From positions 1 to 36,393 of IMG/VR virus record IMGVR_UViG_2534682108_000013: a stretch of 36,393 nt of DNA; one strand, given 5' to 3'. The notes beneath the pieces are model-generated. The model made no database searches. It was not told the DNA's origin and saw only the letters and a list, made by a program, of their open reading frames with translations. Positions 934 to 36,393 of the stretch are shown here, piece after piece. Numbering within the stretch: the stretch's first letter is position 1; each line of letters opens with the position of its first letter. Position numbers and translations under genes: made by a program. Source of the DNA: a virus (lineage: Duplodnaviria > Heunggongvirae > Uroviricota > Caudoviricetes).

Positions 934-1008
934 ATGGCGAGGGTTTAAGCAATCGAGCGGCAGCGTACTTACCCCGCACTCCATTAGCGGGTATACTCAT
1001 GCCGCATT

Positions 1009-1031
1009 GTCCTCTTAGTTAAATGGATATA
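1009..1031 (+). other. Truncated tRNA-Arg (argW-like) 5' fragment: acceptor 5' strand and D-arm start only
   Basis: GTCCTCTTAGTTAAATGGATATA matches the first 23 nt of E. coli argW as I recall it; identity stops inside the D-arm; no complementary 3' acceptor strand or T-arm in the next 150 nt, so no cloverleaf can form; TATACT -10-like hexamer just upstream. Confidence 0.4.
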
Positions 1032-1147: not shown

Positions 1148-1537
1148 TTACATCACTGGGCAGTCATCAAACTCCGCATTTCTGGCATCATTAATGATGT
1201 ACGTGATCACCCCGAATATAGCTGGTGCAGAACTGTAACCGTCATCATCTACTGGCAGTGCTTCCCTTCTTCCGTTCTCCAGATTAACCAGGTGAGGTTG
1301 AGGATGAGTTCGATATCGCTTTATTCTGAACTCCCCGTCTATTGCACATATCAGCAGCGAGCCATCACAGGGAGAAAGTGAGGCATCAACAACAAGCAGC
1401 GCCCCCTGGATTATCCCTTCCCTGAAATGTGAACGCGATGCCCGCATAAAATAAGTCGCTGCTGGCTGGCTGATTAACTGCTGATCGAGGGAGATTCGTG
1501 TTTCAACATAATCTGCCGCAGGTGAAGGAAAGCCCAT
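1148..1537 (-). CDS. UmuD'-like protein (S24 LexA/UmuD-family C-terminal domain without the N-terminal arm)
   Basis: From internal Met: MGFPSPAADYVETRISLDQQL... aligns with UmuD residues after the Cys24-Gly25 cleavage site; GAGAGGG RBS-like sequence upstream of the ATG at 1537; the longer ORF start at 1609 sits 6 bp from the divergent dinI-like ATG and its first 24 aa do not resemble the UmuD arm. Confidence 0.6.
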   Translation of the reverse strand: MGFPSPAADYVETRISLDQQLISQPAATYFMRASRSHFREGIIQGALLVVDASLSPCDGSLLICAIDGEFRIKRYRTHPQPHLVNLENGRREALPVDDDGYSSAPAIFGVITYIINDARNAEFDDCPVM

Positions 1538-1580
1538 GTTTACGCCCTCTCTTGAATACCGGATAAAAACACAGTATAAA

Positions 1581-1600
1581 TACTGTATATCCATCCAGTA
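1581..1600 (+). promoter_or_regulatory. Candidate LexA (SOS) box TACTGTATATCCATCCAGTA in the umuD'/dinI divergent region
   Basis: CTGT-N8-CCAG resembles the E. coli dinI operator form (CCAG half-site); 16 nt upstream of the dinI-like ATG; overlaps a second palindrome CAGTAT-AA-ATACTG (1572..1585). Confidence 0.45.
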
Positions 1601-1615
1601 AAGAGGCAATGAGCA

Positions 1616-1858
1616 ATGTTCGTGGAACTCGTTTATGACAAAAGGAATTTTGATGGTCTGCCCGGTGCAAAAGATATCATTCTGGGCGAGTTAACTAAGA
1701 GGGTTCACCGGATCTTCCCCGATGCTGATGTTCGGGTTAAACCGATGATGACACTGCCGGCGATCAACACTGACGCCAGCAAGCATGAGAAGGAACAGAT
1801 AAGCCGTACTGTTCAGGAGATGTTTGAAGAGGCTGAATTCTGGTTAGTGAGTGAATAA
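1616..1858 (+). CDS. DinI-family DNA-damage-inducible protein
   Basis: 80 aa; C-terminus ...EMFEEAEFWLVSE parallels E. coli DinI ...ETWESADDWFVSE; AAGAGG RBS 8 nt upstream. Confidence 0.8.
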   Translation: MFVELVYDKRNFDGLPGAKDIILGELTKRVHRIFPDADVRVKPMMTLPAINTDASKHEKEQISRTVQEMFEEAEFWLVSE

Positions 1859-29073: not shown

Positions 29074-29604
29074 TTAGTCTGGAGGTCTGGAAACCTCATC
29101 AGGGGCACAGAAGACCCGGAATAACAGCGTCAGGTGTTCCTGCCATTTGGTCATAACCTGATAGCTATTCTCTTCAATCTGAGCGCGTTCAGCGGCGTCG
29201 ATAACTCCGTCTGCGGTAGCTTTACGGATATACTGAGAGTGCCTGCCAATCCACTCGATGGATTCCATAAGGCGCTGATTGATGTCGGCGTTATCAACAT
29301 CATCAACATCTGCCAACGGCACAAACAGACCGTTCGAGTTCCGGGCAACAGCATTTGCGATATGGTTTGAACCACCAGCAGCCTGTAAGACCATCGCCCA
29401 TCCCAACGGGAAGATTTGATCACCGGTAGTACGAAGTCGGTTATGTAGTGGATCGGTTGCCGGGGTTACGTCATCAGATTTATATACCCCAAGGATTTCA
29501 GCAGCTTCTTCATAGCCACCAGGTAAATCAGCGATAGTTCTTCTGATAGCAGCCACCAGCCACGCAGGCTGTTTTTCAACTTTCCACTCTGGTTGATTAC
29601 CCAC
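29074..29604 (-). CDS. CII-like regulatory protein (tentative, 186 CII / CP76-like size and position)
   Basis: 176 aa directly downstream of cro in the early operon; family assignment is from memory and weak. Confidence 0.35.
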   Translation of the reverse strand: MGNQPEWKVEKQPAWLVAAIRRTIADLPGGYEEAAEILGVYKSDDVTPATDPLHNRLRTTGDQIFPLGWAMVLQAAGGSNHIANAVARNSNGLFVPLADVDDVDNADINQRLMESIEWIGRHSQYIRKATADGVIDAAERAQIEENSYQVMTKWQEHLTLLFRVFCAPDEVSRPPD

Positions 29605-29974: not shown

Positions 29975-30685
29975 ATGAAAACTGAAACGCCTGACATCTT
30001 CGAGTTACGACGCCTCAAACTTCAGGAGTTGGTAACTCGCTTTAAGACCCAAAGAGAGTTTGCTGAAAAGGCAGGGCTTGATCCGACTGTTGTTTCTCGG
30101 ATGCTTTACCCTGTTGGTAAACCTAATAAGCGGAATATTGGGGAGCAGGCAGCTCGCCAGATTGAAGATGCTATGAAAATCAGCCGTGGATGGATGGATG
30201 GTCTTGGACCTACCACAAAAATGGATGTTGATGTACCCACTCACAAAGTCGACAATTATCGTGTAGAAGTTCTCGACCTTACTGTGAGTGCTGGTCCTGG
30301 ATGTTTTATGATCTCTGAGTTTGTTGAGGTTCTACACGCCATTGAGTTCACCACCGAGCACGCTCGTTCACTTTTCGGAAATCGTTCTCAGGAAGATGTA
30401 AAAGTGATGACTGTCGATGGTGACAGCATGTGCCCAACTATACAGTCTGGAGACAGGTTGTTTTTTGATGTTTCGGTAAGAAACTTCAAGGTAGATGGTG
30501 TTTATGCGTTCGTATTCGGACAGCACTTCCATGTAAAGCGCTTACAGATGCAGGGTTTGCAGCTTGCAGTTTTATCAGATAACCCTGTGTACAAAGACTG
30601 GTACGTAACTGAAGAAAACCAAGATCAATTGTACATAATGGGGAAAGCATTGCTACATGAATCAATAGCTTACAATAAACTGTAA
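29975..30685 (+). CDS. CI-type repressor (N-terminal HTH, C-terminal S24 LexA-like autopeptidase)
   Basis: C-terminal domain with DGDSM Ser motif and Lys (VKR); divergent from cro. Confidence 0.85.
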   Translation: MKTETPDIFELRRLKLQELVTRFKTQREFAEKAGLDPTVVSRMLYPVGKPNKRNIGEQAARQIEDAMKISRGWMDGLGPTTKMDVDVPTHKVDNYRVEVLDLTVSAGPGCFMISEFVEVLHAIEFTTEHARSLFGNRSQEDVKVMTVDGDSMCPTIQSGDRLFFDVSVRNFKVDGVYAFVFGQHFHVKRLQMQGLQLAVLSDNPVYKDWYVTEENQDQLYIMGKALLHESIAYNKL

Positions 30686-31189: not shown

Positions 31190-31787
31190 ATGAACACTTA
31201 CAGCGTCAATGACCTGTTTAGACCCCTACACGTAAACGTGGCGTAGCACCAGGCGCGATCCGGTTGGTGTGAGGTTATCCCCGCGCGAGAGCGAGAACGG
31301 CGTGAGAATGGGCAACACTGGCAGGGAAATGACGCTGATTACTGCTTAGAAGAGTTAGGTTCCCCCCGGTTACCCAGGGGGATGTGTGAGAAATTATGAA
31401 CAGTATTTCTTCACGATTAACATGGTGATGAAAATCAGTGTCGCTGTAACTGGTTCACAATGACTCAGCAGCAATGACATGATTAAGTAATCATATTTAG
31501 TCATCTACGTTTCCACGCCTACCCTTGCGAGTAGTCTGCTGAATGAATTCTCAGCATCCATATGTTCTCATATTCAGAGATATCAAAAAAGCCTTAGGAC
31601 CCTTGGGAGTGCTTTGGGGTGTGATGAATTGTAGCCATTAAAGGTAAGCCGAAGATCAGCACCGGCCACCGCACCACCAAAACATTTCCATAATTTCGAT
31701 GTCCAAAGCATTGGTGAACACTTAGAAATCAGACGAAACACACACATTCATACGGTTACTTTGTGTCAATCATTTCAGGAGGTTATA

Positions 31788-32903
31788 GTGCCATTATCCA
31801 AGCGTTCAGTTGAAGGCAGTCAAATGGCAAATGCACAGTACGAGAAAGGGAAAATCATACTTGAGCACACTAAAACTCAAGTCAAGAAGGCTGGAGAGTG
31901 CATACGAAAAGGAAATGGTGATATCGAAAAATCAATCGAGATTATCCAGCAGTATAGAGCGGCCCATCTGTACCCTTTGATGATTATTAAAAATCTCGTG
32001 TGGAAACATGCGCAAAAAATAAACAAAAACGCTATCATTGCACGTAGATTAAAACGTCTTCCGACCATTATTGATAAGTTACGACGTAAAACACTTGATG
32101 GTAAAACGCCGAATTCTATTGCTGTAACCCGAATGAGCGATATTGGTGGTTGCCGTGTAATTGTCGAGGACAGACAAGAGTTACTTTTATTAGATTCTTC
32201 GTTAGACAAAAGTCGCACCACCCATAAATCTAAGGTCAAGGATTATATAAGAACTCCGAAACCTACCGGCTACCGTGGTATCCATAGAGTTTATAGTTGT
32301 TATGACAAGGATGAATCTCATCAGTGGAAAGGGTTTGATATAGAAGTACAGTTAAGAACTAAACTCCAACATTTATGGGCCACTACAGTTGAAGTGGTGG
32401 ATTTGTGCGAAGGCAGGGCCCTGAAAACTAACCCATTCGAATCAAACCCTTCATGGATTGAGTTTTTCCAGCTAATGAGTGAATTCATTGCTGATGAAGA
32501 AGGATTCATTTTCCTACCTCCTCATAATAAAAACATCATAAAATCAAGACTTTTAAGTCTTAATGATAAACTTAATGCCATCGAAAAGCTCAGGTCATTT
32601 AACCGGTTATTCTCTGATAAAGAGTTAGACCTTTCCAAGAATAAGGGCGGATATGTAATAATCGCATTAAAATCAAATAAAATATTTTACAAGACCTTTA
32701 CAACATCTCAAAAGCACTTAGCTGTAACTGCATATTCCATTGTTGAAAAAGACGATGATGCAAATGGTTTATTTGTTGAGATGGACGACCTGCGAAAATT
32801 ATCTTCTGCCTACCCTAACTATCTAATCGATACGAGATTTTTTATAGATAAGTTTGAGTTGTATACCAATTCAAGTTATTGGGCAAAACCCCGACAGATT
32901 TAA
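31788..32903 (+). CDS. RelA/SpoT-domain nucleotidyltransferase with C-terminal extension (candidate fused toxSAS-type defence protein)
   Basis: Motifs TRMSDIGGCRVIVEDRQELL, KPTGYRGIHRVY, DIEVQLRTKLQHLWA; AGGAGG-5 nt-GTG start (the ORF track uses TTG at 31761); AT-rich; own terminator. Confidence 0.75.
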   Translation: MPLSKRSVEGSQMANAQYEKGKIILEHTKTQVKKAGECIRKGNGDIEKSIEIIQQYRAAHLYPLMIIKNLVWKHAQKINKNAIIARRLKRLPTIIDKLRRKTLDGKTPNSIAVTRMSDIGGCRVIVEDRQELLLLDSSLDKSRTTHKSKVKDYIRTPKPTGYRGIHRVYSCYDKDESHQWKGFDIEVQLRTKLQHLWATTVEVVDLCEGRALKTNPFESNPSWIEFFQLMSEFIADEEGFIFLPPHNKNIIKSRLLSLNDKLNAIEKLRSFNRLFSDKELDLSKNKGGYVIIALKSNKIFYKTFTTSQKHLAVTAYSIVEKDDDANGLFVEMDDLRKLSSAYPNYLIDTRFFIDKFELYTNSSYWAKPRQI

Positions 32904-33685: not shown

Positions 33686-34498
33686 ATGTCTCAAATTGAA
33701 GGCTCTGCCGTGCTCGACATTCGTGATCTGGTCTCTGCAACTCTGAAGACTGAGACGGACATTCCGTCAGTTGTTGTACCCGATGGCTTTGAAGTCAAAT
33801 CCCTCGAAAGTCTGCAACTGGCTCCGTCGCGCATTCGTCAGAGCGCCAACCTGATTTCTCCGGGTTCGCTGATCGCTTACATCCAGCGATTCCGTGATGA
33901 ACGTACTGTAGTTTTCGCGGATAAAACTAAAACGCGCATTGTCGCCGTGCTGGATTTCCACCAGAACGCAGACAATCCGAGCTGGGCTGCACATGAAGCT
34001 GTTTATGACTGCCCGTTCTCCGACGAATGGAAATCATGGACTGCCAACGATGGCAGCAAAATGGACCAGATCAACTTCGCTGAATTCTTGGAAAACAATA
34101 TTCAGAATGTTGCGCCGGTTAGTGATTCATACCATGGCCCGTCAGGTACCGAACTGCTCGAAATGGTCCTGGCATTCCAGGAAACTCGCAAATCTGAGTT
34201 TAAGTCTGTTAAACGCCTTTCTGATGGTACCTGCCAGTTCCAGTTCAGCGATGAAAAATCAGGTTCTGGTAATACCAAAATGCCGGAAAAAATCAGCCTG
34301 GCAATTTCTCCATTCCACAACGGCTCTCCTTACCAGGTCGATGCACGTATCCGCTACCGCCTGCGTGATGGTCAGTTGGTCCTCTGGTATGAGCTGATCG
34401 AACCGAAGAAAGTTGTTGAGCACGCATTCCAGGAGATCGTCACCGATATGGAAAGCCAGCTTGGCGAAGACCTGCCTATCTACGAAGGCTCTGTTTAA
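33686..34498 (+). CDS. YfdQ-like protein (DUF2303-type)
   Basis: 270 aa; size and neighbourhood as recalled for E. coli CPS-53 yfdQ. Confidence 0.55.
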   Translation: MSQIEGSAVLDIRDLVSATLKTETDIPSVVVPDGFEVKSLESLQLAPSRIRQSANLISPGSLIAYIQRFRDERTVVFADKTKTRIVAVLDFHQNADNPSWAAHEAVYDCPFSDEWKSWTANDGSKMDQINFAEFLENNIQNVAPVSDSYHGPSGTELLEMVLAFQETRKSEFKSVKRLSDGTCQFQFSDEKSGSGNTKMPEKISLAISPFHNGSPYQVDARIRYRLRDGQLVLWYELIEPKKVVEHAFQEIVTDMESQLGEDLPIYEGSV

Positions 34499-34575
34499 TC
34501 CCACCGTGTGTTGTTTTATGCGCCTGCCCTGCGGGCGCATAGCAAAGCACTCTCCCACTACATGAAGGAGTAACC

Positions 34576-35373
34576 ATGCCCAGTTTAGGCCAGCTCTATA
34601 ATGATAAAGACGCCGGGTTAACTACCCGCAAAACCTACAATGTTCCGCTGGATAAAATTTACGCCGAAGAAGGCTACAACGTTCGTGAACTCAATCGGGC
34701 GCATGTTGAAGAATTCCGCGATGCGTTTATTGCCGGTGAATATATCCCGCCGCTGGCCGTAGAAGTTACCGAGCGTGGTGTGAAGGTTATCGACGGCCAT
34801 CACCGCTATCATGGTGCGCTGGCTGCTATCGAAATGGGCCACGACATTGTGCGCCTTGAATGCAAAGATTTCGTCGGTAGTGAAGCCGACAAGATCGCCT
34901 TCATGGTAACCAGCTCGCAAGGATTAGCGCTTACTCCTCTTGAACGTGGCGCGGCATATCATCGCCTTCAGAATCAGGGCTGGAGTCCTTCAGAAATAGC
35001 GGCAAAAGTTAAACGTTCTGAGTCCGATATTCTGCAACACCTTCAACTTCACGAATGTACTCCATATATCAAAAAACTCGTTCGTGATGGTTCCATGAAT
35101 TATGCCATCGCCATCGGTATCTCCCGCGAGCATGGTGTGTATGCCGATCGCGAAGCTTCACGTCTGATGAAGAAAGCTGAAGCCGCAGGTAAGAAAAAAA
35201 TAACCAAGAGCATCGCCAATCCTCAGTTTAATGCCGGAAAAGCAAGAAAGTTTCTTGAGCTTATTTCTTCATGTGCTGAGGACTCTGGTGAAGTGCTGAC
35301 CATTGAAGTGCCACCAGCAATGCAGGCTGAAATTATCTCTATTCTTCGGGAATTTCGTCATGAAGCAGTCTGA
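34576..35373 (+). CDS. ParB-like nuclease domain protein
   Basis: VIDGHHRYHGALAA ParB/Srx-fold signature. Confidence 0.7.
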   Translation: MPSLGQLYNDKDAGLTTRKTYNVPLDKIYAEEGYNVRELNRAHVEEFRDAFIAGEYIPPLAVEVTERGVKVIDGHHRYHGALAAIEMGHDIVRLECKDFVGSEADKIAFMVTSSQGLALTPLERGAAYHRLQNQGWSPSEIAAKVKRSESDILQHLQLHECTPYIKKLVRDGSMNYAIAIGISREHGVYADREASRLMKKAEAAGKKKITKSIANPQFNAGKARKFLELISSCAEDSGEVLTIEVPPAMQAEIISILREFRHEAV

Positions 35374-35569
35374 TTTACCAAGATGCCCAACGTGCGGAAA
35401 TATGCCCGAATACTCGCTGAAACCCAATCATCTTGGCTGGGTTTGGGGTGGTATCAGATGCCCGTATGACCATTACAGCGTGAAGCCCAACGGACCGGCC
35501 AGTAACCGTGCAAAGGCAGAAGAAACTCTGGCTCCGCAGTGGATTGCGTTGGTAGAAAAAGCAAGATAA
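35360..35569 (+). CDS. Small zinc-ribbon protein (possibly Lar-family restriction alleviation)
   Basis: MKQSDLPRCPTCG... with a second RCPYDH Cys/His pair; overlaps the ParB-like stop; Lar assignment is weak. Confidence 0.35.
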   Translation: MKQSDLPRCPTCGNMPEYSLKPNHLGWVWGGIRCPYDHYSVKPNGPASNRAKAEETLAPQWIALVEKAR

Positions 35570-35577
35570 GAGGTTTT

Positions 35578-36393
35578 ATGATGAGCAAATCAAGCATGGA
35601 ATATTACTTCGAATTCCCCGCCTCTCGCGGGTTACAGGGGAATACGCTTATTCTTCTGATGAACGTTCCAGGGCGAACCTTATCCCGTGTACTGGCATCC
35701 GATAATTACGGACACACCCTCGATCGCTCTCAGCGCGAAATAAACAAGTCACGCGTCAAAAAGTTTTACGATTATCTGGTTACAGCAGCAGAAAATAAAG
35801 AGCCATTCATCATCCCACCACTGGTTGGAAACTGCGCTTCACATGTGGAATTCGAAGAATTCGGCAACACAAATGTCGGTGTTGTTAGGTTTCCTATGGA
35901 TGCCGAAATTAAACTTTTCGACGGTCAGCACCGCGCTGCGGGTATATCTCAGTTCTGCAGAGATAATGATGCAATCCTGCATGTACCGTTGATGATGACT
36001 CTGCTACTTCCACTGAAGACACGTCAGCAATTCTTCTCCGATATTAATAACAACGTCTCCAAGCCATCAGCCGCAATCAATATGGCTTATAACGGCAGGG
36101 ATAAAATTGCACAAGAAATGGTGTCATTCCTGTCTACTCACCCTGTGTTTTCGGAAATCACAGACTTCGAACACAACGTAGTTCCGGCCAAAAGTGATCT
36201 GTGGGTCAGCTTTAAGGCCATGAGCGATGCAACCTCAAAATTCTCCGGAAATGGGGATGACGCCATTGCAACAGGTGATATTTACGATATCTGGGAAGCA
36301 TGGCTCAAGTTTACCGCTATAGATGGCATCCGGCATGGTGTTACCCCATCCGAATACAAACGGGATTACATTCAGTTTGTAGTGGCACACTGA
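35578..36393 (+). CDS. DGQHR-domain protein (DndB-like, ParB/Srx superfamily)
   Basis: KLFDGQHRAAGI motif; AAGAGG RBS before ATGATG at 35578. Confidence 0.7.
   Translation: MMSKSSMEYYFEFPASRGLQGNTLILLMNVPGRTLSRVLASDNYGHTLDRSQREINKSRVKKFYDYLVTAAENKEPFIIPPLVGNCASHVEFEEFGNTNVGVVRFPMDAEIKLFDGQHRAAGISQFCRDNDAILHVPLMMTLLLPLKTRQQFFSDINNNVSKPSAAINMAYNGRDKIAQEMVSFLSTHPVFSEITDFEHNVVPAKSDLWVSFKAMSDATSKFSGNGDDAIATGDIYDIWEAWLKFTAIDGIRHGVTPSEYKRDYIQFVVAH

Follow-up and report, generated by a model that had tools for sequence, protein, structure and literature searches.

A HumD-family, UmuD′-like gene and a divergent dinI-like gene with predicted LexA operators at the attachment end of an SfI-like prophage

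What is the small UmuD-like protein that is encoded, back to back with a DinI-like protein, at the very edge of a tailed-phage genome, and does the pair represent a new SOS function, a relic or something already known? The question arose from a first, sequence-only reading of the IMG/VR virus record IMGVR_UViG_2534682108_000013, in which the two genes were proposed to be prophage-borne SOS cargo, supplying a pre-truncated UmuD′ with a changed active site together with DinI. The whole stretch analyzed, here called the window, comprises 36,393 nucleotides; the region shows 100% identity to the chromosome of Escherichia coli O157:H16 strain Res13-Lact-PEA12-26. The features needed to place the two genes in their prophage are as follows:

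1–933: yfdC
934–1031, plus strand: chromosomal DNA 3′ of yfdC that reaches into tRNA-Arg (argW) and stops within its 5′ part
1148–1537, minus strand: humD homologue, 129 codons from the ATG at 1537, with the stop codon at 1148–1150, assigned by NCBIfam NF051876 and UmuD′ structures
1151–1186: C-terminal tail of HumD, ...ARNAEFDDCPVM, residues 118–129
1616–1858, plus strand: dinI-like gene, 80 aa and stop codon (Pfam PF06183; RefSeq WP_000497431.1, “DinI-like family protein”)
29074–29604, minus strand: CII/CP76-like regulator, divergent from the CI-like repressor
29975–30685, plus strand: lambda-like CI-like repressor of 236 aa with a Peptidase_S24 domain

All 5426 complete E. coli genomes match positions 934–1031 of the window, a stretch that ends inside an annotated tRNA-Arg; only nine of them remain similar beyond 1031 and run on into the prophage. 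As a search of the window with ARAGORN moreover yielded no intact tRNA, the junction (att) between chromosome and prophage lies at about 1031/1032, inside tRNA-Arg. The yfdC-side junction (1010–1032) keeps just the 5′ part of argW; since phages that integrate into tRNA genes more commonly do so at the 3′ end, an intact argW copy is presumably rebuilt at the opposite prophage end, beyond the window. The baseplate and tail genes of the prophage are of the Mu type, the tail region sharing ~74% of its DNA sequence with that of Shigella phage SfI, and the humD homologue and the dinI-like gene are its outermost two genes, the former lying 116 bp from the junction. A scan of positions 1000–2000 for terminators gave none. 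Elsewhere in the window, a 380-aa ORF (31761–32903, plus strand) with a RelA_SpoT nucleotidyltransferase domain (PF04607, 4.6e-17) may be a prophage-borne anti-phage defence gene of the CapRel-like fused toxin-antitoxin (toxSAS) kind, and a run of cargo-like genes occupies 33686–36393 (plus strand). Their products are a DUF2303 protein of 270 aa (5.7e-71), a 265-aa protein with a ParB-HTH and, from an ORF that extends past the window end, a member of the DndB family (2.4e-39); the run may represent an island for DNA modification or defence within the prophage.

The minus-strand ORF, taken over its full open length (1148–1609), matched the Peptidase_S24 family of Pfam (PF00717, 34.1 bits, cut-off 23.3). 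When it was compared to the NCBIfam equivalog NF051876, “HumD family translesion DNA polymerase” (cut-off 120 bits), a score of 225.6 bits was obtained, with residues 1–129 falling on positions 1–129 of the 129 in the profile; HumD from phage P1 scores 221.5 bits with the same model. The protein shares 73% identity with HumD of P1, P7 and SJ46 and 67–70% with the homologues of HK639, HK140, phiKO2 and N15 (gp26) (tblastn), and many homologues already carry the name HumD in the databases. Compared to structurally characterized proteins, it was matched to the UmuD′ chain 1umu_A (HMMER, E=1.5e-22), and its N-terminus, M-GFPSPAADYVE, aligned with residues 25–35 of UmuD, i.e. starting at Gly25, with which UmuD′ begins. 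That the ORF begins directly after the UmuD cleavage site, as had been read from the letters, is thus borne out. The Cys/Ala-Gly of the UmuD cleavage site reads Met-Gly in the humD frame, so that no cleavable bond with an N-terminal segment is left. UmuD (PDB 1UMU, 1I4V, 8GMT) belongs to the same S24 fold family, is LexA-regulated and can be aligned from Gly25 to its end at 40% identity, but it has a 24-residue arm with a cleavage site and an operon partner in umuC, both of which the protein encoded here does without. No umuC is found near humD, in agreement with the earlier reading, the gene being flanked by the att junction downstream and the divergent dinI-like gene upstream, and no Y-family polymerase was detected among the large ORFs of the window that were compared with Pfam (tail, replication and cargo genes). 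A family alignment of 54 sequences was used for an AlphaFold2 model of the protein (129 aa), which was discarded (mean pLDDT 44, pTM 0.31); the alignment was too shallow, every sequence in it being ≥71% identical. Judged by profile and alignment, the ORF is an ordinary member of the HumD family, a known phage family of ready-made UmuD′.

The family member characterized first is HumD of P1 (AAQ14073), which McLenigan and co-workers reportedly described in 1999 as a pre-processed, LexA-regulated UmuD′ able to complement UmuD′ together with host UmuC. In the GenBank record of P1, HumD is stated to be a protein that “functionally complements E. coli UmuD'”, with a LexA site for lxr/humD 19 nt upstream, and the complementation is likewise stated in two papers (PMC7092418, PMC9603915). 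P1 HumD resembles the protein of the window in its length (129 aa), its M-GFPSP start, the position of its LexA box relative to the ATG, its ...GEFDDCPV[IM] tail, the Ser and Lys that multiple alignment places in the dyad columns and the lack of an adjacent umuC. The surroundings differ, however: in P1 the divergent neighbor is lxr, a single box forms the operator and phd-doc follows humD, whereas in the window the neighbor is dinI-like, there are two boxes and humD sits beside the att junction of an integrated SfI-like prophage, and the active-site motif reads SRSH rather than ADSH. As Lxr gave no Pfam hit when searched for a DinI domain, the P1 layout is not homologous on the lxr side.

The divergent neighbor in the window was correctly recognized as DinI-like: its product matches Pfam PF06183 with 67.7 bits (1.1e-18, cut-off 24.2) and the structure of E. 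coli DinI (1ghh) with E=3e-7 over residues 15–80, the acidic C-terminal helix being aligned, including ...QEMFEEAEFWLVSE. The NCBIfam equivalog model for DinI (NF007893) gave only 39.9 bits with a cut-off of 111, and the protein is on this score a prophage-type paralogue, for which a function orthologous to that of chromosomal DinI is unassured because the score lies so far below the cut-off. With E. coli DinI and the homologues of Gifsy-1, -2 and -3 it shares the length of 80 aa, the DinI fold, an acidic C-terminal helix ending in W-x-VSE and a LexA box 15–19 nt before the ATG. A Gifsy dinI homologue is said, following work by Lemire and co-workers in 2011, to be followed by an antirepressor gene, whereas the gene studied here is monocistronic and has no such gene after it. 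The Salmonella Gifsy prophage homologues are LexA-regulated and damage-induced, with a LexA box 19 nt before the ATG (PMC8072944).

Control by LexA was examined in the 78-bp gap that separates the two genes, where the following elements were located:

1545–1552, minus strand: Shine-Dalgarno sequence of humD, AGAGAGGG, separated by 7 nt from the ATG at 1537 and read from the sequence
1552–1580, plus strand: candidate dinI promoter, TTGAAT, 17-nt spacer, TATAAA, proposed by eye
1557–1576: LexA box 2, TACCGGATAAAAACACAGTA on the plus strand and TACTGTGTTTTTATCCGGTA on the humD strand, with one mismatch (CGG for CAG)
1573–1602, minus strand: promoter-like elements of humD, TTTACT, 18-nt spacer, TATACT, from a consensus scan only
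1581–1600: LexA box 1, TACTGTATATCCATCCAGTA, a perfect TACTG-N10-CAGTA that ends 15 nt before the dinI ATG
1602–1606: Shine-Dalgarno sequence AGAGG of the dinI-like gene

Both boxes lie within the gap, 4 bp apart. Box 1 is the sole exact TACTG-N10-CAGTA in the 36-kb window, with ~0.036 expected from base composition, and the 19 nt between the end of box 2 and the humD ATG match the distance annotated for the LexA site in P1. A LexA-box-like palindrome had been noticed in this region before; it was presumably ACAGTA-TAAA-TACTGT (1572–1587), which is where the two boxes join. The CTG and ACAGT of box 1 are invariant in 34 distinct operator sequences from relatives, the variation being limited to the spacer, and the deviant G of box 2 is an A in several relatives, which gives the canonical CAG (e.g. 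TACTGTTTTTTTATCCAGTA). P1, N15 and HK639 also carry a LexA-type box 14–19 nt before humD, and in HK140 one precedes the two-gene operon; where a locus lacks dinI, the box is single and reads TACTGTATATAAAAACAGT[GA]. In the window, the spacer of the putative humD promoter is taken up by box 1, and box 2 covers its -10 element and predicted start site, although the promoter scan on its own is weak evidence, with 3 sites in a 1-kb region against 2.4 expected from shuffled sequences. The candidate dinI promoter was missed by the scan because the final base of its -10 element is not T; box 1 would cover its predicted start site. Each box would hence cover the start site of one promoter and the spacer of the other, and two LexA dimers would shut both. 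On the strength of the operator sequences and their conservation, we predict that humD and the dinI-like gene are both controlled by LexA.

The arrangement is not peculiar to this prophage. In a set of 80 IMG/VR loci encoding proteins 93–100% identical to the one studied here, a divergent dinI lies beside humD in 77, making the two genes under a shared operator the dominant layout in enterobacterial prophages. About 38 of the 80 loci have the layout of the window, with a gap of ~78 bp, while in about 35 a gap of ~320 bp holds an extra ORF of 79 aa between operator and humD, as in genes 026–028 of HK140. For this conserved ORF (MPRRSDIEIAWYASIQQEPNGRK...FQLFNPNGGL; e.g. positions 2262–2501 of locus L006, where it corresponds to HK140_027, and loci L008 and L010) Pfam gave no significant match, WVELL with the HK140 version (E=0.008) being under the cut-off, and it is presumably a third SOS-regulated gene. 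It is precisely absent from the window, where operator and Shine-Dalgarno sequence are fused straight to humD. In three loci (L071, L072 and L074) a deletion has taken out the LexA operator, so that the beginning of dinI runs directly into the middle part of the 79-aa ORF, while humD is intact; these copies may have lost LexA control. Among the complete E. coli genomes, 95 of the 5426 contain the humD-dinI module. In E. coli Nissle 1917 it sits, with 94% DNA identity and an identical DinI-like protein, in a lambdoid prophage that is unrelated to this one, and both there and in HK140 the order of divergent dinI, LexA box and humD is found next to the attachment site, the HK140 module differing by the extra ORF. 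A literature search combining “HumD” and “DinI” found no paper describing the pairing, PMC7092418 being the sole return that was not noise.

Taken together, we consider it very likely that the last two genes of this SfI-like prophage, which has a Mu-type tail and is integrated in argW, form an SOS moron in which humD and a dinI-like gene are divergently oriented under LexA control, and that HumD is made directly as UmuD′. In the undamaged cell, host LexA would keep both genes off through the two boxes lying over the overlapping promoters, and DNA damage would derepress both. HumD would then be produced straight in the UmuD′ form, without an arm and without a cleavage step, and by analogy with P1 HumD it would dimerize and join host UmuC and RecA* in a Pol V-like translesion polymerase, the assembly of which need not await RecA*-mediated processing of UmuD. 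The DinI-like protein, in turn, would bind RecA filaments and modulate their co-protease activity. Partnership with UmuC and an effect of DinI are predicted for this element, and the pair could conceivably tune host mutagenesis or CI cleavage, as the sequence-only reading had put forward. The core of that reading, SOS cargo under LexA control made up of a pre-truncated, non-cleavable UmuD′-like protein and a DinI-like protein, is supported; it is not new, though, and the change in the active site was overstated (see below). The P1 protein is said, in the same 1999 work, to be poorly expressed and to complement well only from high-copy plasmids, which tempers any physiological role proposed for a HumD.

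In an alternative reading, the pair would act mainly on RecA* itself rather than in translesion synthesis, HumD in the groove or at the tip of the filament and DinI alongside it, damping or timing the co-protease and thereby tuning cleavage of the S24-type CI of the prophage and prophage induction. A CI-like repressor carrying a Peptidase_S24 domain is indeed among the prophage proteins, and the prophage's own induction therefore probably goes through RecA*; UmuD′2C and DinI both bind RecA filaments, humD and dinI are paired in nearly all of the relatives, and the catalytic dyad is dispensable in arm-less relatives. HumD is, however, also found without dinI in P1, N15 and HK639, the repressors of P1 and N15 are to our knowledge not cleaved through RecA, and the only activity tested for the family is complementation of UmuD′. 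We accordingly regard a primary action on RecA* as having little support and as unlikely, though the best placed of the alternatives to a HumD that serves as UmuD′.

A second elaboration is suggested by the C-terminus. HumD-family proteins run ~12 residues past the end of UmuD and finish in E-F-D-D-C-P-V-M, and in the 54-sequence alignment this acidic EFDDCPVM tail is nearly invariant. Related forms (EFDDTPF, EFDEIPCI, EFDAEPFLI and others) occur in arm-less representatives down to ~40% identity, and a tail of this kind was found in 8 of 23 arm-less representatives vs none of 51 armed ones. It resembles the C-terminal tip of SSB, DFDDDIPF, and may be a detail of the HumD family that is new. 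One could picture HumD as a phage lineage of its own that abandoned S24 catalysis and acquired this tail (E-F-D-D-x-P-hydrophobic-COOH) as a dock for the repair and replication proteins that bind the SSB tip. With DinI, co-expressed from one LexA operator, blocking the processing of host UmuD, the prophage would replace host UmuD′ in Pol V and so control translesion synthesis at induction. We hold this fuller scenario to be distinctly improbable as a whole.

The active site bears on both the claim of an altered enzyme and the possibility that HumD is still a protease. The G-D-S-M of UmuD is replaced by S-R-S-H in the protein of the window, with one residue deleted, so that the observation of an altered motif (ASRSHF for ASGDSM) was sound; a loss of the nucleophile does not follow from it. 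Pairwise HMMER sets His37 on Ser60 of UmuD, whereas three MAFFT alignments (7, 126 and 51 sequences) set Ser36 there, and the latter placement is preferred since it brings the Gly of relatives that read G-A-T-H onto Gly58 of UmuD. The same three alignments place Lys73 on Lys97 of UmuD, in line with the retained Lys region reported earlier. The motif is thus altered in this HumD, while the Ser-Lys pair is probably retained. Among 125 close members, the nucleophile column contains Ser in 91, Thr in 30, Leu in 2 and Ala in 1, the next residue is His in 115, where S24 enzymes have Met, and the Lys column is Lys in 122. In 23 arm-less cluster representatives (≤50% identity), on the other hand, S, T, P, A, H, D, Y, R, L or C is found at the Ser position and K, R, C, V, L or F at that of Lys, as opposed to 25 armed representatives, in which G-x-S-M and K are mostly kept. 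Across the arm-less lineage the alignments clearly indicate that the pair is dispensable, distant relatives having largely lost it. An engineered UmuD′ needs no cleavage chemistry, and the decay of the dyad fits with this.

The near-constant columns of the close members (Ser or Thr in 121 of 125 for the nucleophile, besides the Lys) are what would be expected if HumD, with Ser36 and Lys73 kept and no arm of its own, worked in trans as a protease, with host UmuD or a different S24 protein as its substrate, in the way UmuD′ can cleave UmuD intermolecularly; such cleavage by UmuD-like proteins was reportedly established by McDonald and co-workers in 1998/1999. The substitution of Thr for Ser in about a quarter of these members, the missing G-D-S-M context and the free replacement of both residues in distant arm-less relatives argue against conserved catalysis, and a protease acting in trans finds little support and is very improbable.

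A self-cleaving enzyme fares worse still. The frame is open back to a TTG at 1609, RefSeq WP_231504641.1 gives the humD homologue, through PGAP, a length of 148 aa from the ATG at 1594 and the name “S24 family peptidase”, and several database entries are 148–167 aa long, from which a longer S24 peptidase of 148–153 aa with a novel N-terminal arm might be proposed. The 24 in-frame codons upstream of 1537 show no likeness to the UmuD arm, however, and overlap the operator; both longer starts sit within the LexA boxes and promoter, the ATG at 1594 in box 1, and neither has a Shine-Dalgarno sequence. The only credible ribosome-binding site is the one before 1537, as had been claimed, and its AAGAGAGGG element is conserved in the intergenic regions of relatives. 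MGFP is the exact start in 102 of 120 homologues, and in the ~35 relatives with the extra ORF an unrelated small reading frame fills the upstream sequence while HumD still starts at the same Met. The longer starts were accordingly rejected, and a self-cleaving form is contradicted by the data to the point of being highly improbable. Since the 129-aa reading fits the HumD profile end to end, the start called by PGAP is likely a mis-annotation, as it is for the Nissle 1917 copy.

Least probable of all, and likewise rejected, is a decaying, unexpressed remnant of a umuDC operon, which the missing umuC partner, the non-canonical active-site motif and the position at the prophage edge might suggest but which is contradicted by purifying selection (mean dN 0.016 and mean dS 0.40 between the humD of the window and 79 relatives, dN/dS ~0.04), by the gene being intact with 129 codons in 79 of 80 viral-contig relatives, by the conserved Shine-Dalgarno sequence, promoter-like elements and operators, and by the sharing of the module between unrelated prophages (the Nissle 1917 lambdoid prophage and HK140).

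The UmuD-like gene at this prophage end is hence a rediscovered HumD with a typical prophage DinI partner, belonging to a family that was named and tested 25 years ago and for which an NCBI model exists. Given how regularly the two genes occur together, studies of HumD physiology should probably consider DinI alongside. For the family as a whole, the loss of the Ser-Lys pair in the arm-less lineage supports the view that the dyad serves self-processing only and not the accessory role in Pol V.
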